A stretch of DNA of 64,000 nt. Origin: Carcharhinus longimanus (taxonomy: Eukaryota). The notes beneath the pieces were generated by a model. The model did no database searches and had not been told where the DNA came from. It was given only the letters and a program-made list of their open reading frames with translations. This document shows, piece by piece, positions 3,122-64,000 of this stretch (position 1 is its first letter; each line of letters starts with the position of its first letter). The translations under genes and the position numbers were made by a program. The DNA is taken from contig JASCQW010000156.1 of assembly GCA_030264375.1 (NCBI GenBank), forward strand, positions 13,507,326 to 13,571,325. Reading direction: 5' to 3'.

Positions 3122-5235
3122 TTGATCTGATTTATTGTTTCACACGTATTAGTATACAGTGAAAAGTATTGTTTCTTGTGTACTATACAAAGCATACCGT
3201 CCATAGAGAAGGAAAGGAGAGAGTGCAGAATGTGGTGTTACAGTCATAGTTTGGGTATAGAGAAAGATCAACTTAATGTGAGGTAGGTCCATTTAAAGGT
3301 CTAATGGCAGAGGGAAGAAACTATTCTTGAGTCGGTTGGTACATGTCCTCAGAATTTTTATCTTTTTCCTGACAGAAGAAGGTGGAAGAGAGTATGCCCA
3401 GGATGCATGGGGTCCTTAATTATGCTGGCTGCTTTTCTGAGGCAATGGGATGTATAGACAATGTCAATGGGTGAGAGGCTGGTTTGAGTGATGGACTGGG
3501 CTTTGTTCTCAACACTTTGTAGTTTCTTGCAGTCTTGGACAGAGCAGGAGCCATACCAAGCTGGATACAACTAGAAAGAATGTTTTCCATGGTGCATCTG
3601 TAAAAGTTGATGAAAGTCATAGTGGACCTGTCAAACTTCCTTAGTCTTTTGAGAAAGTAGAGGTATTATTGGGCTTTCTTAGTTATAATTTCAACATGGA
3701 GCAACGAGGACAGGTTGTTGGTGACCTGGACGTCTAAAAACGTGAAGCTCTTGACCATTTCTACTTCACCCCATTGATGTAAACAGGGGCATGTCCTCCA
3801 CTAGGCTTCCTAAAGTCAATGACTATCTCCTTTTGTTGACACTGTGTAAGAGTTTATTGTCGTTGCACCAATTCAGCAGACTCTCTGTCTCTTTCCTGTA
3901 CTCTGTCTTGTTATTGCTTAAGATCTGACCCACTACGGTGGTGTCATCAGCAAACTTGAAATCAAGCTGGAGGGGAATTTGGCCACACAGCCATAGATAT
4001 ATAAGGAGTATAGTAAGGGGCTGAAGACACAGCCTTGTGGGGCACCGATGTTGAGGATGATTGTGGAGGAGGTGTTGTTGCCTACCCTTACTGATTGCAT
4101 TCTGTCGGTTAGGAAATTCAGGATCCAGCCGCAGAGGGAGTAGCTGAGCTCCATGCCATGGAATTTGGAGATAAGTTTCGGTGTTGAAGGCTGAGCTGTA
4201 GTTGATAAATAGAAGTCTGACATGGGTGTCTTTATTATCTAGGTGTTCCATGTTTGAGTGCAGGGCCAAGACAATGGCATCTGCAGTGGGCCTGTTGAGG
4301 TGGTAGGTGAGCTATAACGGATCTAGGCAATCTGAGAGGCCGGAATTGATTCATGCCATGACTAACCTTTAGAAGTACTTCATAATGATGGATGTCAGAG
4401 CCATTAGTCATTAAGCACGCTGCTTAGCTTTTTTTGGTATCAGGAAGATGGTCGTCTTCTTGAAGCAGATAGGAACCTCAGATTGTTGTAAAGAGAGGTT
4501 GAAGATGTCTGCAAATACCCTCGCCAACTGGTCTGCACAGGATCTGAGTGCTTGTCTGGGTATCCATGGGTTGACTTTTGAGAAGGCTGCTCTGACATCT
4601 GCAATAGTGACCTCGGATACAGGTTCATCCGAGGCTTCCAGGTGGAGGGTGTGTTCTCGCTGACTATTTGTTCAAAATGGGCATAGAATGCATTGAGCTC
4701 ATCAGGGAAGGGTACGTTGATACCAGTGATTTTACATGCCTTCCTCTTGTAGCCTGTTATGTCTTGCAGACCTTGCCATAGTTGGCGGGGGTCCATGTGA
4801 CTAGCACGGGGCTCCAGTTCGGGTACTGTCTCTTGGCATCTTTGATGGGTCTCTTTAGATTATATATCACTTTTTTGTATAGGCCTGGGTCACTTGACTT
4901 GAACGCCTCAGATCTAGTCTTCAGCAAGCATGACTATCCCTGCTCATCCATGGTTTCTGGTTGGGAAACATGCAGATTTGCTTCTTTGGCACAGAGTCTT
5001 CTACACACTTAATAATGAAGTCAGTTACTGCAGTTGCATACTCATTCAGGCTGGTCGCAGAGTTTTTAAATACTGACCAATCTACTGACGCTAAGCAGGA
5101 GGAGGTTATCTGATTTCTCAGACCAATATTGCACAATTTCCTTTGATGGATTCTTCTGTTTCAGGTTTTGTTTATAAGCCTGGAGCAGGAGCACAGCCTT
5201 GTGGTCTGATTTGCCAAAGATATGATTGTGCTCCC
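3122..5235 (-). mobile_element. Degenerate, 5'-truncated non-LTR retrotransposon (Rex1/Babar-like LINE, RT region and 3' UTR)
   Basis: Frameshifted peptides [67 protein letters not shown] and NFYRCTMENILS; tail ends in tcaa-type repeats. Confidence 0.85.
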
Positions 5236-18111: not shown

Positions 18112-33729
<15,618 letters not shown>

Positions 33730-43469: not shown

Positions 43470-44222
43470 GCACAGAATCATTACACCACAAGAAGCCTTT
43501 TGGCCCATCATACCCACTCTGGCTCTCCAAATGAGCAATTCACCTACTGCCATTCCCCAATAACCCTACATAGTTTTTTCCTTTCCAGTTAATGGTCCTA
43601 TTCTGATTGAAAGCCTCAAGTGAACTTCCTCCATTACATACTTGGGCAGTGCATTCTAGGCCTTAACCACTTGGGGCATGAAGTTGCTTTTATTGCCAAT
43701 TACTCTTATTCTCAATCCTATCACAAATGGCAACAGTTTCGATCTGCTCTGCCCAAACCCTTCATGATTCTCAAAATCTCTAACAATTTCCTCAGTTTTC
43801 TCCAAGAAAAACAGTTTCAACTTTTCCAATCTTTCTTCATAATTGAAGTTCTTACTTTGTGGCACCAATCTCGTGAATCTTTCCAACAGAGTCTCCAATA
43901 TCTTCACATCTTTCCTAAAGTGCAACTGAGGCCAAACAAGCCTCTTATTCAAGTTCAATATAATCTCCTTGTTTTTGTTTTCTATGTCCCAATTAAAGCC
44001 TCAGATAATGTATGTTTTACTAAATGTGCCTTCAAACTGTGTTGTTACCTTCAATTACTATTGCATACAAATACCCAGATTTCTCTGCTCCTGCACCCCT
44101 TTCAGAGTTGTATCCTTTATTTTATATTGTTTCTACATGCACTTCCTACCAAAATGAATCACTTCACATTTCTCTGGTTGAACTTCATCTGCCATTTGTC
44201 TGCCCATTTCACCAAATTTTCC
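43470..44222 (-). mobile_element. CR1-like LINE 3' fragment
   Basis: Minus-strand ORF contains FRKDVKILETLLERFTRLVPQSKNFNYEERLEKLKLF. Confidence 0.8.
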
Positions 44223-45285: not shown

Positions 45286-46634
45286 TAGTGCATTCCAAAG
45301 GCCACGTACAGGATTCTATATTGGCTAGTAAGAGCTAACAATGCATTCTGGGTCACAATGCCATCTCCAGAGCAAGGTTCGCTCATTTCAAAAGCTTTGG
45401 CAATTTTTTTGGTTAAAAATCCTTCTCTTGGATCACAGTTTCTGCACACCTCTAGAAGATTCGGCAGGTGACAGAGGGCCACAGCCAAGGGGATGTGGTG
45501 TAGATTATTAAATGAATGGTTATAAACTGTGACATGGCACATTCTTAAAAGCAGCCAACTTTCTCCTGACAATGTAAACTTTCTGACCAACTTGTTCCAC
45601 ACTGTGTACAGCTATGAAATGTCCAGAAAAGAAAATTATTTCATTGATTGATGACCAAGTTAATTTATTAATTCGTGAGGTGGTCACTCACACAGTCTTC
45701 CATGACTAAATCACTAGTCATGTGATCTCAGGATCCAAAATAAATCAACAATTGTGGGGCACAATTGACATATTCATCGGTCACATAAATGTAACTCATT
45801 GTAAATTCATATTTATAACTCTCTGATCAGAGAATTATGAATATTGCAATAGCTGGATTGCTTACTGCAAAGTAGCATCAACATCTTAATGCACAACATG
45901 GCTTCAGGTGGGCACTGCACCAAGCCATCTTAGACTATTGAACTAATGCATTTGGGCCTCATTGCCCCTTAAGATGCTCAGTCCAAAACATCTGTTAGCA
46001 TGACTGCAAGAAACTTTGTAAAGGTCCCTTCCACTCTTGCAACAGCTGAGTACATCACACACTACCGGACTCAGCTATACTAGCAGGAAGATGCCAAGTT
46101 CAACCTGTAAGATCTTAGCTGGGATAATGATGCAACTGAGGTGTTGTATAACAGGTAATTAGCTTAGATGTGAGATTCACTAGAAATCATTTTTCTAGGA
46201 TCACGACAAGGTTAGCCACTTGAGCAAGTTATCAGTGGACAGCCAGTACCTGTGAACCATTCCATCAGGAGCATCAGCATCTTAAGAGTGGAAGTAATGG
46301 GCAGGAAAGTGGCTGGAATGCTTAAAAAAAAAAATCAGCAATTGTTGCCCGGTCTGTGTATCCTGCAACTTGCTCTGTTGCTGCCAATAACATCTACAAT
46401 CCAACCACCAATAATTGCATCTTAATTGTACAGTAACATTTCTTTAAAAAAATAAGTTGACAAGTGCAGAAATCGATAAATCAAAGGAGCATAAAATGAT
46501 TGTCTTTTGAGAAAAACAATATTGTGTGAAAAGTGCAAGACACATCACTAATCAGGAACAGAGCCAGATTAAAACTTGAGTTTGAATGGGTTCAGATCAG
46601 ACTAGCCAGACTGGGCCGCGGAATAAAAATTCAA

Positions 46635-47010
46635 GCAGTCAAAAGGCTAAGAGGAGATTTGATCGAGGTATTTAAAATCATGAAAGGTTTAAATGTAACA
46701 AATAAACAGAAAATGTTTCCAATGACTGAAGGGTTGATAACCAGAGCATACATATTTAAAGCAATTGGCAAAAAATACCCCCAGAAACGACACAAGAGAA
46801 AACCCTTTCTTTTAAACACAAGGGGTGGTTTGAATTTGGAATGCACCGATAGGGTGGCAGAAACAGATTCAAGAGTCGCTTTCAAAAGGGAATTGGGTAA
46901 ATAATTGAAGGAGAAGATATGCAGGGACATGGGGAAGCATGGAGTGGGACTAACTCAATTGCTCTTCAGAAGAGTCAGCACAGACTCGATGAGCTGACTT
47001 CTTGTGCAGT
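46635..47010 (+). mobile_element. CR1-like LINE 3' fragment
   Basis: KRLRGDLIEVFKIMKGL. Confidence 0.75.
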
Positions 47011-47644
47011 GTCCTGTGCTTTCAATTCTGTGGTAACTTAAGTAGATGGAAATATTCAAGACGACGTTTTAGATGACCAATATATTCCTTAAAGAACCTG
47101 CAGGCCCATGCCACATTTCAAGAAATCTGCATAACTCAAATCATGGAACTGATACCAAGACCCAGGTCAATAACTAGTTGCTACAACCAACATAACAAAG
47201 TGTATTTAGGGGACCACTAGCCTTACAAATATATATTTTTTAAAGATTTAAATAGTATTTACTGTTTATAGGAAGTACAATTTTTTGACCACCTTTCTAT
47301 TGCAAATTGTACGTATTCTTAAAGCTAGCTCTGTAAGTTTCAAAATGTTTGCAATCATCAGTGTGACTTCCCACACAATAGGGAAAGAACAGTCCTGAGA
47401 CTACAATTCCCAGAAGCTGTTGCACACTCTGCACTGGTGTAGAGTTAACTTTCCATTCACTCCATCGTCTTCAGATTCAAACCTAACATCAGCTAATTTG
47501 TATTTCCCAATTTACCAAATTTTCTTTCAATGCTGAAATCCACACTTTCTCAGTGAAACACCAGGCTACCCAATTGATTACAGCAGTGCTCACAAAGGAC
47601 AGCAATCCTGCCCCACACTATGAAATCCACTCAACATGACTTAA

Positions 47645-48163
47645 CTCTGGTCAGACCCCACTTGGAGTATTGTGAACAGTTTTGCGCCCCAGCTCTAAGG
47701 AAGGATGTACTGGCCTTGGAAAGATCCAGAGGAGGTTCACAAGAATGATCCCTGAAATGAGGAGCTTGTCGTATGAAGAACGATTGAGGACTCTGGGTCT
47801 GTATTCATTGGAGTTTAGAAGGATGAAGGGGGATCTTATTGAAACTTACATGATATTGAGAGGCCTGGATAGACTGGACCCAGAGGATGTTTCCACTAGT
47901 AGGAAAAATTGGAACCAGACTAAAGGGACGATCTTTTAAAACAGATATGAGGAGGAATTTCTTCAACTAGAGAGTGGCGAATCTGTGGAACTCTTTACTG
48001 CAGAAAACTGTGGAGTGTTTAAGACAGAGATAGGTTCTTGATTAATAAGGGGATCTAGGGCTATGGGGAAAAGGCAGGAGAATGAGAAAAATATCAGCCA
48101 TGATTGAATAGTGGAGTAGACTCAATGGGCTGAGTGACCTAATTCTGCTCCTATGTCTTATGG
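47645..48163 (+). mobile_element. CR1/HER1-like LINE 3' fragment
   Basis: KIQRRFTRMIPEMRSLSYEERLRTLGLYSLEFRRMKGDLIETYMILRGLDR followed by the typical 3' UTR. Confidence 0.85.
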
Positions 48164-48804
48164 TATACACACCAGGAATCTCCTGTCAGCTCAACATCAA
48201 TCAGTAATTCTCTCCAATACCACGTTGTGAAGCAGGACTTGCTGCATATCGCAAATGTAAATAGCCACCATAAGAGCTTGGTCAAAGATGCCAATTGAGT
48301 CAGGGTGTGAATTTTCTGCCATCTTTCTCACAGGTCAAACTCAGGGCAAGATGATGAAATCCCATAGTGAGCTAACTGGAGTGCCAGCAAGCTCTCATTA
48401 GCAACTTTAGACTTCTAAGTGCATTAGGTAATACTACTCATTACACAGAGCTGTGTCACTGAGCTGTTCTCTTAGAGCTTCCTTGCAAAAACACTCTCCC
48501 ACCATCAGCTCCAGATTTCACCTTACAGAAGTCATAAAAGGTTTTGTTGGTTCTATTGTTCCAAATACACATCATATGCAGTGAAATAAACAAGTTAACT
48601 CTGCAGATGCGCTGTGTTCAGTTGAGACATACAGTTTCTTTCGGCTGCCTTTGATTCCTGCTTTTCTGATCTTTCAAGGTTAATTACTGGCATGGGTTCA
48701 GTATTTCTCATTTGGACAAATAAAGCCCAGTTTGTCACTGGTTTGACAATAGGAGAAACCTCTCCTCTCCCTTCACCTGCCCAATGAATGTTAGTGTGAA
48801 TTTT

Positions 48805-49082
48805 TAAGTTTATTATTTATTACTGTAACAAGTAGGCTTACATTGACACTGCAAGTTACTGTGAAAATCCCTCAGTCGCCACAATCTGGTGCCCGTTCGG
48901 ATACACTGAGGGAGATTTTAGCACAGCCAATGCACCTAACCAGCACGTCTTTTGGACGGTGGGAGGAAACCCATGCAGACATGAAGAGAATGTGCAGACT
49001 CTGCACAGACAGTGACTCAGGCCAGGAGTTCAACCTGAGTCCCCAGCACTGGGAGGCAGCAATGCTAACCACTGTGCCACAA
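48805..49082 (-). mobile_element. V-SINE (second tail type)
   Basis: Reverse complement of the 60813-61100 type. Confidence 0.85.
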
Positions 49083-49430
49083 TGGTGGTAGCACATGTTG
49101 GTAAGCACTGCTGCCTCACAGCATCAGGGGCCAGGTTCAAATCTGGTCTTGGGTGACTGCCAGTGTTGTATTTGCACATTCTCCCTGTGTTTGCGTGGGT
49201 TTCTTCTTGGCGCTCTAACTTCCTCCCATTGTCCAAAGATGTGCAGGTTAGGGGAATTGGCCATGCTAAATTACCCCTTAGTGTTCCAAGATGTGTAGGT
49301 TAGATGAATTTGCTGTGGTAAATGTGCGTGGTTACAGGGATAGGGTGGAGGCAAGGGCCTGGGTGTGATACTCTGTCAGGGGATTGGTGCAGACTCAGTG
49401 GGCCGAATGGCCTCCTTCTGCACTCCTATG
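49083..49430 (+). mobile_element. HE1/V-SINE-like SINE, head-to-head with the preceding copy
   Basis: ggtaagcactgctgcctcacagc...tgcacattctccctgtg...gggccgaatggcctccttctgcact. Confidence 0.85.
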
Positions 49431-50595: not shown

Positions 50596-50744
50596 TCAGG
50601 GCACTTCAGTTTTGATAACTGTGCCGTCGAGGGCTTCGTTCCGCAGATCCACTGCTGAACCGTTCCTCCAAGACTGCTCTGCAGCTGCTGCAACCTGAAT
50701 CGTCCACAGGAAGTTCTCCTTCGTAATAAAAGGCTCCTCTTTCC
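50596..50744 (-). CDS. Oxidoreductase last coding exon with stop, 149 bp
   Basis: ttccctcag|GG AAA...CCC TGA; KEEPFITKENFLWTIQVAAAAEQSWRNGSAVDLRNEALDGTVIKTEVP*. Confidence 0.9.
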
Positions 50745-53700
50745 CTGAGGGAAGAGCAAACAATTACTCAAAAATAAAAAAAATTGTTTCTACAGCAAGC
50801 AATAAGCCAAGAGTTATTAAGCCCAGAGTTCCAGTTTAATGCATGGTAACATCAGTATTGCTCCTTTCTGCTTTCTCTCCTGAACAAGGGGGCTGGGATA
50901 AGGTTCTATAAATGAAGACAGCACTCTCACACCCCACCCATCTGCGGCTGACAGGTGTTGCGGGTTCAGAAATACTACAGAGACTTGGAACACAAAACCT
51001 ACGCTGGCACTGTGGGAGTGTTATTGATGCCATCTTTCCGATGAGATGTTAAACCAAGGCTCTCATAAAAGATCCTGTGGCACTATTTCAAAGCGGAGCA
51101 GGGGAATTCTTCCCTGGGTTTTGCCCAATATTTGTGCTCAACCAAATCAAATTATCTGACCATCGCCTTAATTCTGTTTGAGGGAGGTCGCTACGTCCAA
51201 ATTGGCTGCCATGTTCCTACGTTAAAACGGCAACTGCACTTCAAAAGTACTTCATTAGCTATAAAGCACTTTAGCATGTGCTGAGATTGTGAAACACACT
51301 ATATAAAATGCAAGGAGCAGCCTGTTGCTGGGGTCTGGTTACATAGGTGGTGGTGGCAATCCTGTATCTCACCCATTGTGGATTTGCAAGTTAAAACAGC
51401 CACCTCTGTGATTCCAGACAAGATCAGTTAAACGTAGACCTTTCTACAATGATATGATGCATTTTCCCACTGAGGTATCGGTGGAGTTTGGAATGCTTTT
51501 AAACTTTAAAGACTTAGGATTGTCTAATGGATAAACCCAGTGACATACTCTGGAAATTACATGGGTGTAGGCATAGTCAGAGAATAACACTCAGCAGTAA
51601 TGCGGTCCCTGCATCCTCCCTGCTAGAGCTGACACGAAATGGCAAAGGTTGCTGATTCTTAGAAGTCAGTGCTTTCAAAGAGAGATAAAAATTGGGAAAC
51701 CGAAGAGTGAGAAATCCAGAGAGTTTAAATGGTGTTACAATTTTTGTAGAGACCAATAACATTTAAGAAAAAATTCAAACTTCCAAATAATAGCTGAAAG
51801 TATGACAACCCGCATTCCTGTGTAATGAACAATAGTGTCTTGTTATCTGTAACTGCTGTCGCTCTCATGGACCCTGGCAAACTAAGCTTGTCTGTGAGTT
51901 TTCAGGGATATCTTTACACCCTTGTCCTCTCAAACACCCACTACTGTGGCAACGTGAATCATACAGTGGGCGTTGAATCCAGGTAGAAATGCTGATTCGC
52001 TTTCCTTGAGACCCCAATTCTCTTCTATCTTGGAAGGAAATGGACTGTTAAAACACAACTTTTACAGCCCAGCATTCTCTTTTCTGGGACTTTGGAGACA
52101 CTTAGTCTTTCCGCTGTTAGTACACAGACTCCTGCCATTGTCTCCAAGTGTAAACACTTTACACCTTTTTCCCAGTGAAACGATCTGGGCCCCCTTTTAA
52201 TTTCTAACAATTAAAACATTCAAGCCTACTGTCAGTCAAACGTCAGAACAAGCTCACATGACTCCCTTAATTTTACTTTAAAGGCACAGACCCCAAAACA
52301 TAATCTCATAAACCTTATAATTGTAAGAACAAGAGATTTGTATATTTTTGGATGCTTTTTACATCCTAAGGGTACCCCAAAACAGCTTCAAAGCCATTCA
52401 ATTATTTTCTGAAAGACAGTCATTGTTGCTCAGATAGGCAGCTCCAACAGTCAATTTGCTAACAGGAAGATTCCTCAACAATAAAACGACTGACCAGTTA
52501 ATCTATTTACTGGCAAGTGGCGTCAAAGATAAGGATTCTTGCTCTTTTATGATGACACACTGTGGCATATCTACATTCGTCTGAACCTTGAAGTCCCACA
52601 CAAAAGAAAGCACTCCCTTGGGGGAGAGGATGGCATCGTGGTAATGTCACTGGAGTAGAAATCCAGAAGTCGAGGTTAACGTCCGAGGGACATGGTTCAA
52701 ATTTTGCCATTGCAGTTAGTGGAATTTAAATTCAACTACTAAAACCTAGAATTGAAAGCTAATCTTAGTAACGTTGACTATGAAACTATCATTGACACAA
52801 GGAAATCTGCCATCTTTACCTGGTCTGGACTACACGTGACTCCAGATCCACAGCAATGTGATTGATTCTTAACTGTCCTCTGAATTGGGCTGATAGTATG
52901 AGGTATGGCCTGCTAGCAACACACACGTCACACCAAAAGAACTAAAATAAAATGCAGCACTCCCTCTTAAATATCCATGCATGAATTTTGCAGTGGGGCT
53001 TTTTAAAATTCATTTACAGGATGCAGCTTGAACTCACAAATATTCTGACTTGAGATGAGAATGGTACGCATTGAAACCAAACTGATAGATTAGGTTGATT
53101 GGAAATGGTAAACTGATCCTAGCGTCAGGTGATTAACAGGGTAATTGTGAGGGGTTATGGGGATAAGGCCTGGTTGGGATTGTGGTCAGTGCAGACTTGA
53201 TGGGCTGAACGGCCTCTTTCTGCACTGTAGGCATTCTATAATTCTATGATACTTAATTCAGCTTCTGTAAATGGCAATCTAATCTACCAAGGCCCCAAAT
53301 CTTCTGGACGGCCACACTTACAACTGGTGAGCTAACATATTCAGTAGTAATTTACTTTGTAATCCAAATCACAAACATAGAACCATCACATTACTGTATT
53401 TCTGCCCCTTTGCTAACCTTTCAGAGTCTTGAGGAAGTGTTTCAGCAGATCTCTATAAGCATCTTTGTACTGGTCGTAATGCAGGTGGGAACAGACAGGT
53501 CTTGGTGTGCCCTGCTCAGTTATTCCCAGTGCATTCCGATTGTCCATCCTTAGTGTCCCTTCTGATCCGTGAACCTTGAAGGATTCAAAAACAAACATGT
53601 GGATGAGCATGCCATTTAAACACACAGCACCCTGATGTGCACATCACCAATACCATCTGTACCCTGCACTCACCACCCCTCCCCCCACCCGCACCCACCG

Positions 53701-56700
53701 CTTGAAACAGTATTAAGCAGCGTGAGTGAAAACTTTGCTCCTACACTGATTACCCAGTAAACACTCCCAAACTTGTGTGAGGTGAGTATAGGACAAAACA
53801 AAGAATTGACTGCTATGATATTCCTTTACAACTGAATATCCACCAGGTTGACTGTCATTGTGGAAGTTGTACACCAGATAGAACCGGCACTCTCAGAAAT
53901 GAAATTGTGGAGACAGATGGTTGAAAAAAAAAGATTTTAAATAAAAAGGTAAAGGGAACAGTCAGTGAGAGATGAAGGAGGAATCCTGGTGGGGATAGGC
54001 GTGACAACCATTTGCTTATATATCTGTGGGGAAGTGACTTACCTCCAACTTCTGGTCACTACTGCGTGTACAATGCTGGCTGACATCAAGTGTGACGATA
54101 GCACCACTGGCAAATTTCATGCTGACTGAGACTGTGTCAGCATCCTTCAGGGCTGCAATCTCTGTCAGGAGTTGAGAATGGATTGGAGTTAACCTCTGCA
54201 CAAATCACAAAACTGCTTTCATCCAAAGAGAGCTGCCTCCTTTCATTTTTTGAATCATTTTAACCTCTGTGCTTTGTTTCCTGGTCTTTTTAAATAATTT
54301 ATTTTTTGCACCGGTTATTTTAATATCTTTTTGTTTGTCAGGTGTAGATATTGCAGCAGTCACTACTCCATCAGATGCTGCACAGACACACACTGATATG
54401 CTCAGTGAGGTTTAAGAACTGGCCACAATCAATACAGGTTCAGCAAAATTTAAAACTGCATAGAATAGAGAAGGGAGACAATAATATCTTAATAAATCTA
54501 TGGACACTCAGAGGGATCATGCACCAAGCCCTTCGCCTGGACTCAGTGCCAAAGTGCTGTGCAGCAAGTGTTACCTCATCCTCCTTTCACCCCACGGCCA
54601 GCAATATTTCCTTTGTCCCTTCTGAACTTGCTGACTCTCACCGGGGTTAAGGTCCAAAAACTGAAAGTGCCAAATGTTATCTCTGACAGACATGGGAATT
54701 TGCCTGTTTAAGGCCACTTAGTATTGGCAGGACATTCTACATGAAGGGCTTCTCCGGATGTCCATGTTTGCACCACAGTGAAGGACATTTGATAGCAATC
54801 ATGAGAAAAGCCCTGTTTTACCCTCTTTAATAATTTGCAAAATCTTAGCGAATATAAATCTTTACTGTGTTGACTGTGGCTCAGTGGGTAACACTCTTGT
54901 CTCCAAATCAGAAGACTGTGGATTCAAGTTCCACTCTAGGTATGGCGGCACGGTGGTTAGCATTGCTGCCTCAGTGTCAGGGACCCAGGTTCAGTTCCAG
55001 CCTTGGGTGACTGTCCATGTGGAGTTTGCACGTTCTCCTCGTGGGTTTCCTCCAGGTGCTCCAGCTTCCTCCAGACTCCAAAGATGTGTGGGTTGGATTG
55101 GCTGGTTGGCCATACTAAATTGCTCCTTAGTGTCAGAGGGAGTAGCAGGGTAAATACATGGAATTACGGGGATGGGCCTGGGTGGGATTGCTGTCGGTGC
55201 ATGTTTGATGGGCCGAATGGCTTCCTTCTGCAGTGTATGGATTCAATGATTCTACTTGAACACAACATCTAGGTTGACACTCCCTGTGCAGCACAGAAGG
55301 GGCGCTGCGCTATCAGCGGCACGGAAGGGGCGCTGCGCTATCAGCGGCACGGAAGGGGCGCTGCGCTATCAGNNNNNNNNNNNNNNNNNNNNNNNNNNNN
55401 NNNNNNNNNNNNNNNNNNNNNNNNNNNNNNNNNNNNNNNNNNNNNNNNNNNNNNNNNNNNNNNNNNNNNNNNGGGCGCTGCGCTATCAGCAGCACAGAAG
55501 GGGCGCTGCGCTATCAGCAGCACAGAAGGGGCGCTGCGCTATCAGCAGTGCTGAATCGGGTGTACTGTTAAAATTGAAGCTCTCTCCCAGATGGAAGATT
55601 CCATGGCACTAACTCAAAGATCCAGGTCTCCTTGGTGGCCTGGCCAACTTTTATCCCTAAATAAACATCACCAAAACAGAATACTGATCAATATTATGTA
55701 GTTGTTTGTGTGTTCTTGCTGCATACAAAAAAAAGGTTTTCATATATTACAACAGTAGCTACATTTGAAAAGGCACTTCATTGACTGTAAGAATTTTGGA
55801 ACTTTCAGGTGAAGACAGATACTAAATAAATGCAAGTTTATTCTTTAACAGTCAGAAGTGGAGCAGGAAAGAGGACTGTGCAAGTTGATAAAAAACATTG
55901 CTCTCTATGTTGGGAATTACTTGTAATGCTTCTATTACCCAATGATATCTGAGTATCCCTCTCAAGTGACATTTCCACAAAGACTTTGAGGGCAACATTT
56001 TCCACTTTCGTGCATGATAGAAACAGTCTGCTTCCTGTGTTCCTTTTTTCAAAAAATTTAACTCGTGCCTGGGATGTTCATAATGATTGAGGCTGTATTT
56101 ATTGCCTTTCCCCGAGTGGCTCTGGGGATATGAAGAGTCAAGCACACAATGTGGGACTGGTGTAATCTGCAGGTCTGAATGTAGGTGGAAGCAGCAGGCT
56201 CTCTGTGAACTGGTGGGGTATATTTATGACGAACTTTGATTTGGTCCCCAGCTCAAAAAGGACCAGATTGATTGAACTAGTGGAAAGAGTTAAACTCACA
56301 ACTTGTGCCCCCCAGCCACAATTCATTTCACCTGGGAGTTGACCAATTAATCTTTAAATTTCCATCCTCCCGCCCCCCATTCCTCCAGATCTACACTCAA
56401 GTCTTCAATCAGAACGCAGCTTGTTAGGTTCAAGCTTCTGAATCAGATTGAGATGGGAATTTGACACAACTGATGTAAATCTACTATTCTGAAGATTCTT
56501 CCCTCACTACTTCCAGACAAGTTCTTTGCTATGCTCACTATCTTATTGTACATTCAATTAGTTCCTACCTTGGCAGAAGGCATGACCCAATGAGAATATG
56601 GTATCTGGAGCATTTTCTCCAAGTAGCCAGCAGACAGTATCCAAATCGTGTACAACACCATCGTAGAATATCCCACCTGTTTAAAACACAACAATTCAGG

Positions 56701-59700
56701 TGACTACGCCTGTCTGGAACAATAGGTTACAGCCACAGTTATATTACAATGCATATAAGAATTCAGCTTGGAGCAGGTTTTGTGACAGAAAGGACAAACA
56801 TCACAAGATATGGGGAATTCTAAGCAGATTACCAGTCTTTATCAGTGTGCCTAAAGGTTAAGACTTGTCAGTCTCAACCTTTAGGCACACATCAACATAC
56901 GGGCATATGACAATCAGGAAAAGATCAGATTATGGAGAAGGCTCCACGGCTATCCCCATCCTCAACAGATAAAGGTAAAATACTGTGGATGCTGGAGTCT
57001 GAAACAAAAACAGAAAATGCTGGAAAATCTTAGCACGTGTGACAGCATCTGGGAGACAGAATAGAGCCAATGTTTTGAGCCTCAATGACCCATCATCAGA
57101 GCTGACGGAGGGTCATCCAGACTCAAAATGTTGGCTCTATTCTCTGTCCACAGACTATTCCTCCAGCAGTTGGCGGGCGGATGCGGGGAATAAGGGGGAG
57201 AAGATAAAGCTGATGTATTCCTCCAACCATCTTCTGCCACAAGTGCCAGTGAATGATCCATCTCCCCAGCATCATAGATGCCAGCCTTCAGCCAACTGGA
57301 TTCACCCCATGTGATAATAAGAAATAGCTTAAGGTGCTGCATACGGCAAAGGCTAAGGGTCCTGATGATATTCTGGCAACAGTATCAAAGACTTCTGCTC
57401 CAGAACTTGGCGTGCCCCTAGCCAAGCTGTTGCACCACAGCTACAACACTGGCATTTACTGGACAATGTGGGAAATTGTCTCAGTATGCACTGTCCATAC
57501 AAAGCAGGATAAATACAACCCAGTCAAATACTGTTCATAAGTCTACTCTCCATCTTCAATAAAGTGATAGAAGGGCTATCCAATAGCACTTGCTCTGCAA
57601 TAACCTGCTCAGTTTGGGTTCTGCCAGGGTCACTCATTCCTTACCTCATTATACCCTCAGTTCAAACATGGACTAAAGAGCTGAACTCCAGAGGTGAGGT
57701 GAGAGTGACTGCTCTTGACATCAGGGCAGCTTGGCAGCTTTTGAGCGAGTATGGCATCAAGGAGCTCAAGCAAAACTGGAATCAGTGGGAATCCTTTCCG
57801 CTGGAGTCATACCTAACACAAAGGATAATGTCGATCACCTCAGTTCCAGGACATCACAGCAGGAGTTCCTCAGGTCACTGTCCTTGGCACAACCATCTTT
57901 ACTTGTTTCATCAATGACCGTCCTTCAATCATAAGGTCAAATGGGGATTTTCATTATGATTGCACAATGTTCTGCGCCATTGACAGAGCTAAGCGATTCC
58001 ATAACAAATGGATCAATCTTCAACATACTGGGAGTTTACTTTGACCAGCAACTGAACTGGACTAGCCATATAAATACTATGTTTACCAGAGCAGGTCAAC
58101 GGCTAGGAATCCTGTGGTCAGTAACTCACCTCTTGATCCTCCCCCTCCCCAAGCCTGTCCACAATCTACAAGGCTCAAGTCAGGAATGTGATGAAATACT
58201 CTCCACTTGCCTGGATGAGTGCAGCTCCAACCACCATCCAGGGCAAAGCTACCCCTTCCATATTCAATCTCTCCACCACTGATGAACAGTGGCAGCAGCA
58301 TGACCATCTATGAAACTCACCAAGGTTCCTTAAACAACACCTTCCAAACTCACAACCACTACCAACTAGAAGGACAAGAGCAGCAGATATGTGGCAACAC
58401 CACAACCTGGAGGTTCCTTTCCAAGTCACTCACCAACCTGATTTGGAAATGTTTCATTGTTTGCTCATTGTCGCTGGGTCAAAAATTGGAACTAACTCCC
58501 TCCCTAATGGCAGTGTGGGTTTACTACAACTCATGATGTAGCGGTTCAAGAAGACAGCTCACCACTACGTTCTGAAAGGCAACTAGGAATGTGCAATAAA
58601 TGCTGCTCCAGCCAGCAATGTCCTCATCCCGCAAAATGAATTAAAAAACATTCACTACTCTTCAAATGCTGAAACAGTCCACATCCAAATGCAATGAGAC
58701 CTGAACAAGAAACATTTCGTGCCACGCCAGTGCCAGGCAATGACCATCTCCAACAGAGAAAATCCATTCAACGTCCCTCAAATGTCAATAGCATTACCAT
58801 TGCTGAATTCACCCTTATCAACAACCTGGAGGTTACTATTGGCCAGTAACTGAACTGGAATAGTCATATAAACACTACAAGGGTAGGCCAGGGGCTGGGA
58901 ACCATGCAGCAAGTAACTCACTTCCTGATTCGCCAAGGTCTGCCTGCCATCTACAAGGAACAAGTTAGGAGTGTGATGGAATACTCTCCACTTACCTGGA
59001 TGAGTGAAACTCCAACAACACTCAAGAAACTCAACACCATCCAGGACAAAGCAGCCTGCTTGACTGCCACTATCTACAAACATTCACACCTAGTGCATTT
59101 TTCCACCATTTCTATTTCATATTTTCAATAGTTTTCTTTTTGCTCCCAAAGTAATTTCTCCAAATCAACTTTTCTCAGAGTTGCATTCACATACATCTAT
59201 TCCACATGGAATTTACTTTTCCAAGCCCATACCTGTTTTTTTGATATAGCTGAGAGACAGAGAAGGGTAGATCCTACTGACACTAACTATTCGATGAATC
59301 CTCCCAAGAGCTTTATTGTGAACTTTCTTGTACAAGAATTGCACAGCTGGATCAAAACGTCTGCACAGAGACAGAAAATAGACATTAATGTCAAGCGTAG
59401 AGTTTATCTGTTCTGTTTTATGTGAACTTCAATAACACGCTGCTACCAACGGAAGTTTATTCTGGCAGAATAATGAAGTGGTTTCTGAAACTAACAAATC
59501 CATTCAGATTCCTGAGGTTAGTGCCAGTATTCCAAAACTGGATTTAAGAGGTTAGAATGGAGAAAACATTGGGAACATCAACAAGGTCACATGTCTTGGG
59601 CACATTTTTAAAAAACAAGTTATAATACTATGCTCCCCGCTACCTGTTTTTTAATTTGTCATCTCCCCTCTTCCCCTGAAGCCTGTTCCTGAGGTATAGT

Positions 59701-62163
59701 TCCATGCTCACCAGTGAATCACCCATTCAGCAAATGTAAGCGAAGTGAATACCAGGAAGCTATCTGATTGCTGGAGATGTTACAGTTGAACCTATTCACC
59801 TAATGTATGCAAATAAAGACATATATGCTTTCTTGCTGTGAACAGGGCCAGCACCCCTGGCTGATTTTAATTTACCCTTCCATTTTGGCCAGCTGAGATC
59901 TGGGTATATTTGCCCAGAGGGAGTCGCCACCCATGTTTTGATTTAGCAAATAAGTTACCAAAGCAATAGCCTATGCAGTTGGGATTTTATCATTAACCTC
60001 AGCTGGTAGACTTTACTCACTTATAGAGTCCACACACCAGAGGTTGCCCACATCTTGCAGCTTCATCGAAGCACGACTCAGCCATTTGTTTGTCTAAACT
60101 CAGTAGCTTTTCACAGAATACTCCTTTACCTGCAACACAAAGAAAATAATTCATTCATTTCAGAGAACCGTATACAAGACAAGACAATAATAACCCTTCA
60201 CGGTATTCTGGTGGAGTCTGGCTAAGTACGACTGAATAGAGTTTCTGTTTTGTGTATACTTGGGAATTTGGGCTTTGGAATTTGGAATTCAGGTTTTCAC
60301 TGAAAATCACTGGCATAATGACAAACATAAAATCCTCCAAGCACCTGGCTACAAATGAGAAAAAGTTCATTTATCAGACAACAAGCTTCAACCTGTATCC
60401 TTTGTAGGAGTGTGAGAAAGATACTGGAAGGAGTTAATCAGAAATGAATGGGCTCTGGCTGCATAAAACTTTAAGGGGAAAAGCGTTTCCACATGCAAGA
60501 GGAAATCTAACTTCCTGGAGAAAGCTTTGCAGGATGGTGCATGTGGTTGTCAACTGCAGTTAGAATCAGCCTTGGCAAATGCAGTCAAATAAGCTTCCAC
60601 AAACAACAATCCAGGCTCTGCTTGAACCTTAGCTACTCAGAAGAGGCACTTCTGGGCTCCTGAAATACTTGCAGCACATTTTATTTACTTTCAAGGACAG
60701 GAAGGGAAAAATGAGGAGATAAAAAGCAACAATCCTTGTGGTTGGCATTACTGAATTGCCAACGGTGCTGCCTACAGTAGATCAGGGGACGTGTTATTTT
60801 ATACCCATTACCTAGCACGGTGGCACAGTGGTTTGCACTGCTGCTTCATTGCACCAGGGACCTGGGTTCAATCAGTGTGTGAAGTTTGCACATTCTCCCC
60901 AGTTCTGTGTGGGTTTCCTCTGGATGCTCCGGTTTCCTCCCACAGTCCAAAAGATATGCTGGTTAGGTGCATTGGCCAAGCTAAATTCTCCCTTAGTGTA
61001 CCCGAACAGGCACCAGAGTGTGGCGACTAGGGGATTTTCACAGTAACTTCATTGCTGTGTTAATGTAAGCCTACTTGCGACTAACAAATAAACTTAACTT
61101 TTTAAACTACAATGTATCATTTTATAGCTAAAGGGTGAATAAAACTAGGCTTTTAAGGTTACAAATTCTAACAAATGTTAAGTAAACATTGGGTTAATTG
61201 AAAAAAATAAACCACTAATCTATTTTGGGATGAGCACCCTTTACTTTGTTTGTGGCAAGACCAACTAAGAGGCTCGGGTCACTGTGCCTCTGGTATTTCC
61301 TGCATGTAGCAAACTCTTCTGTGCTTTGACGAGAAGAGCTCTTGGTCTTAATTAAGTTTTTTTTTAAATAGTTGCAGAAATTTGCATTTGACAACAGGCA
61401 TGTGTAGTGCACAGGGAATATGTATTATTGAAAAGCAATAAAAATGATTGATGCATATCAGTCAATTAAGTTTGTAACCTCACCTGAGTTAAATAAACAA
61501 TTATAAACAATTATAACATTACGGATTACAGGAACATAAAACTTCACTCGAGTATCCCATCTCGATTTCCATCTTTGTTATCTGCCTATTTCCACTTACA
61601 ATTCCCCTGGTCCCTCCTCTCCTCAGTGACGGTGTCGATCCATAATTTATGGCAGTTACATGGGTTGCAGCAACTGTGCCAAGATCTCAGCCAAGTGGTT
61701 ACGATTTACACAGAATCCAAACATCACACAACTATCTGATAACATTGAGCACCAAAGCAAATGCTTATCTTTATCAAATGTCCAAACAAATGTATTTTTC
61801 AGCAGAAACACTGGCTTGCATTCACGAATAGTGTTGCTGACTGATCACATAACCCCCCCCGCCACCCTGCTCCAGAGATGTTATAGAAGCTTCCGGTAGC
61901 TCCCCAGGCTTAAACAACTAACATAGCACATGTTTGCAATCAAAATTAGGACTATCTGGTTGACTCAGAACCACAGCACATGAAGTAGACCCATTTAACC
62001 TTTAGAGCAAACTGACAAGAGTTACCTCCTCAACATCATCCTTCCTTGTCCCTCCAATTCCCATCTGCATTTATCCAAAACGCACACCATACCTGCGCGT
62101 AAAGCATCCAGGACTATTTCCGAGCCTTCTTCTGCCAGCGAGCAAATAATAATTCCTGAGACA
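50596..62163 (-). CDS. Gfo/Idh/MocA-family oxidoreductase (myo-inositol 2-dehydrogenase/IolG-like), 5'-partial; probable intact ortholog of human TP73-AS1/GFOD3P. Exons 62163-62093, 60129-60021, 59360-59233, 56676-56569, 54161-54043, 53574-53418, 50744-50596
   Basis: Seven GT-AG exons with matching phases give an open 279-aa frame. It carries family motifs ALRAGKGVFCEKL, KRFDP, GGIFYDGVVHDLD, DQKLEVHGSEGTL and AAEQSWRNG. The N-terminal GxGxxG exon(s) were not found in the window. Confidence 0.9.
50905..51312 (+). mobile_element. DeuSINE-like element
   Basis: catctttccgatgagatgttaaaccaaggc..aaaagatcctgtggcactatttc..cacttcaaaagtacttcatt. Confidence 0.75.
53418..53574 (-). CDS. Oxidoreductase exon, 157 bp
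   Basis: ccttcaag|GTT...AAA G|gttagc; VHGSEGTLRMDNRNALGITEQGTPRPVCSHLHYDQYKDAYRDLLKHFLKTLK. Confidence 0.92.
54043..54161 (-). CDS. Oxidoreductase exon, 119 bp
   Basis: cctgacag|AG ATT...GAG|gtaagt; IAALKDADTVSVSMKFASGAIVTLDVSQHCTRSSDQKLE. Confidence 0.92.
54940..55254 (+). mobile_element. HE1/V-SINE-like SINE nested inside a DeuSINE-like element
   Basis: Full head, V-domain and tail; host sequence ccactctag...acttgaacac resumes on the far side. Confidence 0.85.
55288..55549 (+). repeat. 28-bp GC-rich minisatellite (gcrgcacrgaaggggcgctgcgctatca)n with a collapsed 100-N gap
   Basis: About three copies on each side of the gap at 55373-55472. Confidence 0.92.
56569..56676 (-). CDS. Oxidoreductase exon with the catalytic GGxxxDxxxHD motif, 108 bp
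   Basis: ttttaaacag|GT GGG...CAA G|gtagga; GGIFYDGVVHDLDTVCWLLGENAPDTIFSLGHAFCQ. Confidence 0.93.
56965..57156 (-). mobile_element. Penelope-like element terminal (pLTR) remnant with an inverted duplication
   Basis: aaaatactgtggatgctgg..acagaaaatgctggaaaatct..gacagcatct followed by a ~42-bp inverted repeat. Shorter copies at about 11465-11520, 30380-30450, 30565-30600 and 34695-34780. Confidence 0.6.
57160..59080 (+). mobile_element. Degenerate non-LTR retrotransposon (RT-bearing LINE, CR1/L2/Jockey group), two pieces, antisense to the oxidoreductase intron
   Basis: KAKGPDDI..APELGVPLAKL, WTKELNSRGEVRVTALDIRAA, FERVWHQG, ILGVYFDQQLNWTSHI, YKEQVRSVMEYSPLTW; tail aataaatgctg..aatgaattaaaaaa at about 58600-58648. 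Confidence 0.82.
59233..59360 (-). CDS. Oxidoreductase exon with the RFDP motif, 128 bp
   Basis: ctgtgcag|A CGT...ACA G|gtatgg; RFDPAVQFLYKKVHNKALGRIHRIVSVSRIYPSLSLSYIKKT. Confidence 0.92.
60021..60129 (-). CDS. Oxidoreductase exon with the CEK motif, 109 bp
   Basis: tgttgcag|GT AAA...TAT AA|gtgagt; GKGVFCEKLLSLDKQMAESCFDEAARCGQPLVCGLY. Confidence 0.92.
60813..61100 (+). mobile_element. V-SINE (second tail type)
   Basis: gcacggtggcacagtggttt..cccgaacaggcaccagagtgtggcgactaggggattttcacagtaacttcattg. Confidence 0.85.
62093..62163 (-). CDS. Oxidoreductase exon (Rossmann fold part), 71 bp
   Basis: tttgtgcag|T GTC...GCA G|gtatgg; VSGIIICSLAEEGSEIVLDALRA. Confidence 0.88.
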
Positions 62164-63125
62164 CTGCACAAACAACAGCACAGGAAACAATTAGGTGTCT
62201 GTGTAGATCAACCTGAAATCCATCTCAGATCTCAATTCATTTTTACGAATACAACTAAAATGCTTTCATTCTAATTTGCAGAAGGAGACCACGGCAAGGA
62301 AAAATGTTCCATTGAACCAAATTTTTTCAGTTGCATTAATCACAAGGGCTGAGAAACAAAATAATAGAAACACAGTTTCTATTCACCTCCAGTCAATGTT
62401 CTGCCATATTACCTGCTGTCCAAACAGCCAATAGAACAGGATTGTCCTTGCACAAGATAAAAATAGAAGAAACTGAAAAATTCAAAATAAAGCAAAGAAA
62501 GCTTCTTCATCCAGAATAATCATTAGAACAACTCTAAAAGGTGAACTTCGAACAGACCTGCTGTCCGTTGAGAATTCATGGTTTGATTTCCGTAACATGT
62601 CCTATGCAAGGTTTTTATTGGCAATACTCACTGATTCACAATGTTTAAAGGAACATCACTTCATAAATGAATGGCCAAAACGGTCAACAGACAGGTGCCA
62701 TTATGGGCAGATAGCAGCTGACAATGGCATTCATTCATCTTGCAACGGAGTAACCAACTGCACCTAGTCCATTACATATTAGGGTACCACAACTGAAGTT
62801 AAACAAAATCTGACTTTGCTCATCAGAGTACCTTGTATAGTTCAAACATTACATCTTGTTGAGGGGTGGGAAAACAGTAAACATTACTGTTCTGATGATA
62901 TTGTGGAACAAAATGAGGAAAAGTCAGCAACTGAATGCTGAATTTGGTTCCACTTGGCTAAGGAAGAGCAACTGGTTAGATCCAATCCAAGCTGAAGTAA
63001 CTGTTTTCAACCAGCTCTACAGGGATGGGAGCTATGAAGAGCTTTGTGGTCTACAACTAGGTATTAGTTAGCAAGAGACAAACAGCCTGAGTGTCTACTC
63101 CTCTCTGTTCCTATTCAGCAACAAA

Positions 63126-63460
63126 GGGGAGGTGATGGCCTATTGGTATTATCGCTAGGCTATTAATCCAGAAATTCTGGGGATCCAGGTTCGAATCCCA
63201 CTTCGCAGCTGGCGGAATTTGAAATCAATAAATAAAAAATCTGGAATTAAGAATCAACTGATGGCCAGGAAACCATTGCCAAAAAAAAAAATCATCTGGT
63301 TCACTAATGTCCTTTAGGGAAGGAAATCTGGTCCTTACCTGCTGTGGCCTACATGTGATTCCAGGGTCACAACAATGTGGCTGACTCTCGACTGCCCTCA
63401 GGCAACTAAGGATGGGCAATAAATGCTGGCCAGCCAACAACGCTCATGTCTAATGAATAG
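63126..63460 (+). mobile_element. tRNA-derived SINE sharing the 3' tail (ggatgggcaataaatgctggcc) with the LINE at 57160-58648; related copy at 52621-52950
   Basis: A/B-box-like head (tggcctattggt, ggttcgaatccc) and shared body ggaaatctg..cttacctg..ctaca.gtga.tccag..cacarcaatgtg. Confidence 0.7.
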
Positions 63461-64000
63461 GGCATGAATATGGATTCCACATAAAAAATAAGTTCCTGTG
63501 CTGATATCCTGCCCTGGCAGATACTTACACTCTAGACTTCCAGATGATGAATGGCCACTTAGGCAAAATCTGTGGCTCATTAGTCTTTCAGGAGTGCCCA
63601 CTTGAAGAGGAAATTAAAAAGCCTAACAAGAAGACATTATACAAGTATACAAAGAAAGATGAGAAATGATCTTCAAAGCCATCCTTGCTGATACTATCCA
63701 TTAATGATGCACACTCGTGCATCTCCCTTCTGCACTGGTGGAATACCAAGCGAAATCAGCCAAAGCAGAATTTCAGGAAAGACTCTTGGAGAATCCTCAA
63801 TGCCCGAGGCAAACAAGCAACTCATGGAGATAGTGGTGGATCTAAACTATCCCAACTATTCTGTTGCCTCCATAATAGGAGCGCACTGCTCCAAAATGTG
63901 CAAATGTGTGTAGAATAAATACGCAATTCATAACCGTACCGTTGGTCATTGAGCACAATGTCAGCGTCCTGTCCCCGTAACACCCTGGTGTTTGCAAGAA

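Follow-up and report, generated by a model that had tools for sequence, protein, structure and literature searches.

The window analyzed here, 64,000 nt of the genome of the shark Carcharhinus longimanus (JASCQW010000156.1:13,507,326-13,571,325; all coordinates are window-based), carries on its minus strand a gene, GFOD3, which sequence comparison supports well as the intact jawed-vertebrate ortholog of primate TP73-AS1/GFOD3P. We propose, at a probability of about 0.55, that its product is a nuclear adaptor in which a zinc finger would bind RNA or DNA, a dead dehydrogenase fold would oligomerize, and a SUMO-type tail would recruit nuclear partners, and that this ortholog of TP73-AS1 was lost in simians.

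Gene Structure in the Window

Seven exons spliced from 62163 to 50596 on the minus strand give a single open frame of 279 codons with its TGA at 50596, the remaining two frames of the same splice holding 16 and 10 stops. All seven acceptors are AG behind a pyrimidine-rich tract (0.53-0.82; background 0.49), all six internal donors are GT, no base of the exons overlaps a self-repeat, and an open frame was found in none of 20,000 random splices of matching exon lengths. The exon borders also coincide with the skips in named shark and ray isoforms (P0006, residues 383-418; P0010, 280-339; P0012, 86-280; P0003, ending at 303). The initial annotation had described seven canonical exons encoding an open Gfo/Idh/MocA frame of 279 amino acids (aa), which the splice sites, random-splice test, and isoform borders bear out, but it had missed an eighth coding exon at 64000-63940, truncated by the window edge and with donor GTACGG, which extends the frame to 299 aa. 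A hunt by splice signals for an upstream exon in 62164-64000 produced 13 candidates, none of them family-like; the genuine exon is this truncated one. The 299-aa frame is identical to the Mustelus asterias record P0001 at 297 of 299 positions. Its full-length relatives indicate a protein of about 559 aa, with an N-terminal finger and linker beyond the window, and not an enzyme of 340 aa. In isoforms P0003, P0006, P0010, and P0012 the finger and C-domain are retained and the Rossmann-like half is partly or wholly skipped.

Numbered on the full-length protein, the minus-strand exon cut by the window end (63940..64000; residues ~260-280 of 559) falls in the Rossmann-like domain and is identical to P0001 at 20 of 20 residues and to the gibbon protein P0121 at 21 of 22. 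The exon at 62093..62163 (residues 280-304), in frame between AG and GT and placed by tblastn and a column table, has Gly at the enzymes' H293. Splice sites and motif comparison define those at 60021..60129 (residues 304-340), where CEKP has become CEKL and GFNRR has become GLYKR, and at 59233..59360 (residues 340-383), where RFDP is retained and the RD loop is gone. With Pfam as additional evidence, 56569..56676 (residues 383-419) retains in shark the catalytic Asp/His positions D388-x3-H392-D, and 54043..54161 (residues 419-458) carries QHC(T/N/H) in place of the R..YGY substrate motif; these Gfo/Idh/MocA C-terminal Pfam matches, found for two of the seven single exons, fall under the curated cut-off. 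The last two exons match the proboscis monkey protein P0128: 53418..53574 (residues 459-511; 47%, E 2e-14), delimited by splice sites, and 50596..50744 (residues 511-559; 53%, E 4e-9), which motif counts also support and which ends in psi-K-x-E (IKTE) followed by TGA. An AATAAA on the minus strand at 48821/48814 was discarded as the GFOD3 polyadenylation signal because it lies within a repeat tail.

Relationship to Primate TP73-AS1

One window exon used as query retrieved 12 cartilaginous-fish proteins, ~559 aa long where complete, and residues 212-559 retrieved 307 proteins, 120 of which were listed. Those 120 come from chimaera, sharks, rays, sturgeon, gar, eels, lungfish, caecilians, frogs, turtles, crocodile, birds, monotremes, and wombat, with colugo the only placental among them; no full-length human homologue is among these 120, and 46 of the rows are bird proteins already called "T73AS protein". 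A colugo query against shorter proteins gave 16 matches, including gibbon and owl monkey proteins named "putative TP73 antisense gene protein 1" and a proboscis monkey model. Eight of the 16, rows without a name, were left out, and short or partial matches that were possibly human were excluded from all analyses.

The gibbon protein matches P0001 at E 2e-26 and the window-edge exon over its 21 of 22 residues at E 7e-9, two donor read-through residues included; in 200 shuffles E never fell to 1e-3. A 22-row tree built on residues 86-280 groups gibbon with owl monkey as the sister of the intact colugo protein (99/97). The three simian models are all truncated and none covers the catalytic-core exons: the owl monkey model reaches the N-terminus, where one His and both Cys of its finger are gone, and the gibbon model begins within the linker, without the finger. 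By comparison shark GFOD3 is intact, at 559 aa with finger and full fold. Homology of the gibbon protein spans residues ~122-280 of the shark-type protein and stops at gibbon residue 199, close to the 201 aa reported in passages of PMC12071610 for SP0495, the product of human TP73-AS1. SP0495 may thus be the decayed linker and first part of the Rossmann fold of GFOD3.

Human TP73-AS1, also known as KIAA0495, PDAM, and GFOD3P, lies tail-to-tail with TP73 according to a passage of PMC5913670, and GFOD3 adjoins TP73 in the same convergent orientation in the window. The symbol GFOD3P is current in literature passages, including one in PMC12690541. Orthology is well supported because the gibbon, owl monkey, and proboscis monkey matches, the tree placement, the TP73 neighbor, and the GFOD3P symbol coincide. 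Homology to the TP73-AS1 product, use of the GFOD3P symbol, and a convergent pairing with p73 dating from early jawed vertebrates, all proposed initially, hold up, the last by its presence in both the shark window and human; the link is, however, less of a discovery than was claimed, since annotators had already named bird orthologs T73AS. The tail-to-tail pairing of GFOD3 and TP73 probably dates to the shark-human ancestor. The initial annotation also took the human locus for a unitary pseudogene, a candidate status that would call for shared disabling lesions and no working human paralog; what was observed is the lack of a full-length human row among the 120 listed and the truncation of all three simian models. 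Transcripts of human TP73 and TP73-AS1 overlap by 216 nt, and the shark stops lie 16,867 nt apart. In a passage of PMC12690541 a rat long noncoding RNA (lncRNA), XR_592813.2, is reported in synteny with human GFOD3P, which may point to a separate decay from gene to lncRNA in rodents.

Loss of Enzyme Motifs

All five shark and ray full-length proteins pass the three curated cut-offs of PF01408 and PF02894/PF22725. The closest solved relatives in sequence and fold belong to the IolG subfamily (TIGR04380; Thermotoga maritima TM0414 3EZY, Sinorhizobium meliloti 4HKT, Corynebacterium glutamicum OxiD 3EUW), which shares the two-domain layout. 3EZY is the best Foldseek match (E 2e-15) of a full-length model that has low confidence in the C-domain and was used for fold class alone, and a PDB profile search gave 3EZY at E 2.5e-45 against 1.2e-6 for the dihydrodiol dehydrogenase DHDH (2O48), in agreement with the IolG-like and not DHDH-like character first suggested. 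The nearest Atlas clusters of the domain are arthropod "YrbE-like" and fungal Gfo/Idh/MocA proteins. GFOD3 nevertheless lies far below the IolG equivalog cut-off of 355 bits, with 176-190 bits in six of six jawed-vertebrate proteins versus 276-460 in 25 of 25 outgroup proteins.

Motifs were counted in 117 named vertebrate rows (the 120 listed minus three, bird-heavy) and in 100 outgroup domain rows from 95 of 150 representatives, from which named duplicates, partial matches, and high-identity fragments without a name had been dropped. GxGxxG occurs in 2/115 vertebrate versus 92/95 outgroup rows, [ED]KP in 0/116 versus 98/100 (the window encodes CEKL), the RD loop in 0/117 versus 91/100, DxxxH in 14/116 versus 95/100, and [YF]G[YHF], the YGY type, in 0/117 versus 82/100. 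GFOD3 thus differs from IolG in lacking GxGxxG, the EKP proline, NRR, RD, and YGY. The substrate motifs GF(M/N)RR(Y/F)D and YGY are replaced in the window by GLYKRFD and RSS, and the shark-type glycine loop, read from P0001, is G-I-C-S-G-N in place of GxGxxG. RFDP, HD, and DQR are retained as in IolG enzymes. At the enzymes' substrate-binding Arg..YGY position Gln-His-Cys is invariant in all 117 vertebrate rows; this QHC motif of exon 54161-54043 could form a new metal, ligand, or redox site.

Among 25 lineage-thinned vertebrate rows, 18 of 32 outgroup-invariant columns are retained, a second aligner agreeing, with the catalytic Asp (D388) in 3 and the catalytic Lys in 17. Triad numbering was mapped through the 3EUW alignment and PMC9603128, passages of which give the Bacillus subtilis IolG triad as K97/D172/H176 and the roles of motifs III and V. 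Shark GFOD3 has lost the second and third fingerprint glycines, R224, H293, P312, R340, D370, R447, and G452. In bony vertebrates the catalytic Lys drifts to R, G, or Q and the Asp to N, S, G, or H while the remaining protein is 60-75% identical; D388 is also present in lungfish and in P0140 and P0141, two sister proteins described below. The same passages of PMC9603128 report that OxiC, without GxGxxG and the catalytic Asp, gave no growth on three inositols, and glycine-fingerprint variants can remain active according to a passage of PMC11612644. The initial annotation had this lineage keeping a functional enzyme; with cofactor and substrate motifs eroded across the whole vertebrate clade, the motif record makes that status doubtful.

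Domain Architecture

The window stops short of the finger, linker, and glycine loop, for which P0001 served as the source. In order, GFOD3 comprises a basic N-terminus and C-x2-C-x13-H-x5-H finger (residues 1-70), a ~135-aa Ser/Asn/Pro-rich linker, and the dehydrogenase fold (residues 213-545), so that finger, linker, and SUMO-type tail are additions relative to IolG and to invertebrate and fungal "YrbE-like" enzymes. The C2H2 spacing (x12-14 range) is present in 60 of 60 full-length rows, and residues 1-72 contain 17 K/R. Between dogfish and chimaera, 70 of 70 residues are identical in the finger region, 99 of 141 in the linker, and 259 of 299 in the dehydrogenase domain.

Modeled alone, the finger reached a predicted local distance difference test score (pLDDT) of 84, and 13 of its top 15 fold matches are chains of small nuclear ribonucleoprotein (snRNP) complexes, terminal uridylyltransferases, or double-stranded-RNA-binding finger proteins, which we take to be U1/matrin-type fingers. 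Fingers of that type (snRNP subunits, TUT1/4/7, ZFa, JAZ) share the C-x2-C...H-x5-H spacing as well as the fold matches, which have weak Z scores and were similar in a further comparison. An AKAP95 Pfam match to the sturgeon finger (E 9e-5) is below cut-off, the ZBED1 fold match has a Z of 2.3, and the finger sequence found nothing meaningful in the PDB. The Pfam BED profile matched none of the jawed-vertebrate rows; CGGBP1 likewise escapes Pfam, and CGGBP fingers have an invariant Leu two residues ahead of the first Cys (PMC8097297), as does the GFOD3 finger, although no Hermes domain was seen in GFOD3. Weak Pfam rows for YscD, EcoRI, exotoxin A, and DUF3482 were dismissed as chance. A fusion of finger and dehydrogenase is undescribed in the literature searched for either U1/matrin or CGGBP/hAT zf-BED fingers.

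The sole psi-K-x-E of GFOD3 sits at its terminus. This motif occurs within the last 12 aa in 99 of the 106 vertebrate rows whose C-terminus is intact, versus 1 of 95 outgroup proteins, and by the established consensus it is a probable SUMO site.

Family Relationships

In a family tree of 18 vertebrate rows against the first 45 outgroup rows, GFOD3 forms a vertebrate clade with 100/100 support, a species-like topology, and one copy per lineage. Its stem of 1.46 changes/site and short tips suggest rapid remodeling followed by strong conservation. P0140 and P0141 pair together (100/99) as sister to the jawed-vertebrate rows, a position that suggests jawless fish, and share with them degenerate motifs and a terminal VKTE. 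In each a degenerate dehydrogenase domain is fused to a different finger, BED in P0140 (E 1.2e-8) and DM in P0141 (E 1.2e-9); if these proteins are real, the dehydrogenase domain has repeatedly been paired with DNA-binding fingers. Among the same representatives, P0142-P0144, P0147, P0154, and P0166 join two diverged IolG-like domains in tandem over 550-730 aa, some of them with altered glycine loops.

Human GFOD1 and GFOD2 belong to the same superfamily and, as for GFOD3, have lost cofactor motifs and are likely noncatalytic according to passages of PMC11612644, which describe no zinc finger in GFOD1, whereas GFOD3 has one. No GFOD1-named chain is among the best 60 of 68 PDB rows for the GFOD3 profile. 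We infer that the pseudoenzyme origin of GFOD3 is independent of that of GFOD1/GFOD2. Yeast Gal80, a transcriptional regulator with the Gfo/Idh/MocA fold, responds to NAD(P) and is not known to carry a nucleic-acid-binding domain of its own. It is the closest functional analogy to the role proposed for GFOD3, and it is not among the best 60 of 68 PDB rows.

Function and Alternatives

As a nuclear adaptor, GFOD3 would use its U1/matrin-like finger to bind RNA or DNA, and the dead dehydrogenase fold, presumably oligomeric like its enzyme relatives, would present several fingers and might sense NAD(H) through residual binding. SUMOylation at IKTE could connect GFOD3 with complexes for RNA processing or nuclear repression. 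In simians, decay of the finger zinc ligands and middle exons would have left a transcribed locus with a residual open reading frame (ORF) of the SP0495 type, consisting of the linker and first Rossmann part read through the splice donor at window position 63939. A bolder and still tentative extension starts from an inositol dehydrogenase that early vertebrates would have converted into a dead oligomeric core, tagged with SUMO, perhaps able to sense NAD(H) or inositol, and fitted with varied fingers (matrin-like in jawed vertebrates, or BED/DM in the sisters that may come from jawless fish). This metabolite-responsive regulator of genes or RNA, akin to Gal80, would have remained next to TP73 for all of jawed-vertebrate history and been lost in simians, and the tumor-suppressor peptide SP0495 would be its decayed middle.

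Several observations weigh against the adaptor proposal. What is said of the finger, linker, and glycine loop, all beyond the window, comes from a near-identical protein; the finger's best fold match has a Z of just 5.4 (root-mean-square deviation 2.9, 56 residues), below the tool's caution level, Foldseek with the finger model returned no matches at E<=0.001, and the Atlas placed the finger near BED/zf-C2H2_12 clusters at 0.87-0.91 (BED 0.87-0.89). The full-length structure model is poor (pLDDT 50), and P0140 and P0141 are gene models of skewed composition that could be chimeric predictions. The primate side of the comparison consists of gibbon, owl monkey, and proboscis monkey proteins, and the residues 86-280 tree places ray-finned fish among mammals, a sign of long-branch error that makes its deeper nodes unreliable. 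Finally, of the 25 thinned rows, 24 have E310 and the beta-2 acidic residue E246, 22 have H392, and 18 have the second Gly, and the shark retains K311, D388, H392, E310, E246, and 22 of 32 outgroup-invariant columns, which leaves room for NAD binding or altered catalysis.

These retained residues could belong to a dehydrogenase that, in cartilaginous fishes at least, is active and NAD(P)-dependent, with an altered cofactor loop and a substrate that is new, the finger serving only to target it; this is a modified form of the initial reading. Such an enzyme would agree with D388 in lungfish and P0140/P0141, with the strong conservation of the domain between dogfish and chimaera, and with the activity that glycine-fingerprint variants can keep, and the invariant QHC motif could make its new pocket; we regard it as rather unlikely given the list of shark losses and the drift of catalytic Lys and Asp in otherwise well-conserved bony vertebrate proteins. 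We hold it improbable that GFOD3 is a dead protein-binding scaffold, cytoplasmic or on signaling proteins, whose finger contacts protein and not nucleic acid. The model here is human GFOD1, a cofactor-less pseudoenzyme binding NKIRAS2 (passage of PMC11612644), and a passage of PMC12071610 reports that SP0495, the human remnant, binds phosphoinositides and is located at the Golgi; the finger class, moreover, is assigned weakly. The basic N-terminus with its 17 K/R, the terminal SUMO-type motif, and the BED/DM sister proteins all point instead to the nucleus, and the behavior of SP0495, which has neither the finger nor the bulk of the fold, need not be ancestral. It is very improbable that a paralog or look-alike of TP73-AS1 occupies the shark locus and that the shared neighborhood is coincidence. 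Primate protein names may be similarity transfers, the neighborhood comparison covers TP73, CCDC27 lying beyond the window, and a passage of PMC5913670 reports no DNA ortholog in mouse, rat, cow, and chicken; yet neighbor and orientation are the same in shark and human, the 21/22 identity with gibbon includes splice-donor read-through, primates nest beside colugo, and the gene is single copy per lineage in a species-like tree.

TP73 and the Intergenic Region

The plus-strand gene is TP73, p73 ranking above p63 and p53 for three of three exons searched against the PDB. The DNA-binding-domain exon lies at 18124..18309 (+; Pfam P53, E 2e-16; top PDB matches p73) and the tetramerization-domain exon at 27988..28110 (+; Pfam P53_tetramer; p73 E 1.5e-17 vs. 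p63 1e-11), both with approximate limits. The last coding exon (33411..33729, +) is split by a 10-N assembly gap at 33688-33697, beyond which it ends in TAA at 33727-33729; the stop-to-stop distance of 16,867 nt to GFOD3 confirms the convergent arrangement about 17 kb past the TP73 stop that had been noted at the outset. A short duplicated stretch flanks the gap and the apparent frame is shifted, likely an assembly artifact. The TP73 exon at 31011-31158 (+) encodes nine His/Asn-rich residues (a poly-His tract) ahead of a PPPY motif. In the present data only linkage, and no functional tie, joins GFOD3 to p73.

None of 13 long ORFs between TP73 and GFOD3 contains a host-gene Pfam family, the 22 ORFs scanned with Pfam gave one reverse transcriptase match and one weak unrelated match, and an Rfam scan of the window found no families. 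A 28-nt GC-rich tandem repeat at 55291-55548 extends across a 100-N gap in a GFOD3 intron. A ~300-nt dispersed repeat family resembling short interspersed elements occurs at 48803-49424, 54939-55267, 60815-61104, and about ten further places, and fragments of long interspersed elements at 57500-59130, 43600-44000, 46500-47900, and 3800-4900 (RVT_1 match 3936-4238). An inverted repeat at 57052-57149 (48 bp, 2-nt spacer, 79% complementary) is possibly a decayed miniature inverted-repeat transposable element.

Literature and Significance

Passages of PMC5913670, repeated in PMC12028249, describe TP73-AS1 as primate-specific with no ortholog outside primates, and a passage of PMC12071610 states that SP0495 is exclusive to primates. 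The terms GFOD3, T73AS, and Q9UF72 have only two passing mentions in the literature searched, which lies outside subscription journals and the original SP0495 paper, and no account of the origin or synteny of TP73-AS1 as a coding-gene remnant was found in it. TP73-AS1/KIAA0495 terms are absent from the supplements of the fossil-gene surveys PMC5577775, PMC5644071, and PMC6886504 (bar two PMC6886504 files), PMC5577775 having left out antisense and primate-only lncRNAs by design, and the gene goes unmentioned in passages of PMC9004415 and PMC4743058. Its symbol and the GenBank names imply that curators already know TP73-AS1 as a pseudogene whose orthologs are coding, and the literature searched yielded no published description of the finger-pseudoenzyme architecture or the pseudoenzyme signature.

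GFOD3 is an unstudied vertebrate protein that goes by the database misnomers "myo-inositol 2-dehydrogenase-like" or "StrI-like", and its architecture of zinc finger, probable pseudoenzyme, and SUMO-type site is directly testable in fish, frog, and bird models. If SP0495 is a remnant of GFOD3, the domains and origin claimed for that peptide need re-reading. The cancer literature on TP73-AS1 treats the locus as a recent primate lncRNA; the evidence presented here points to the remnant of an old and strongly conserved protein gene.

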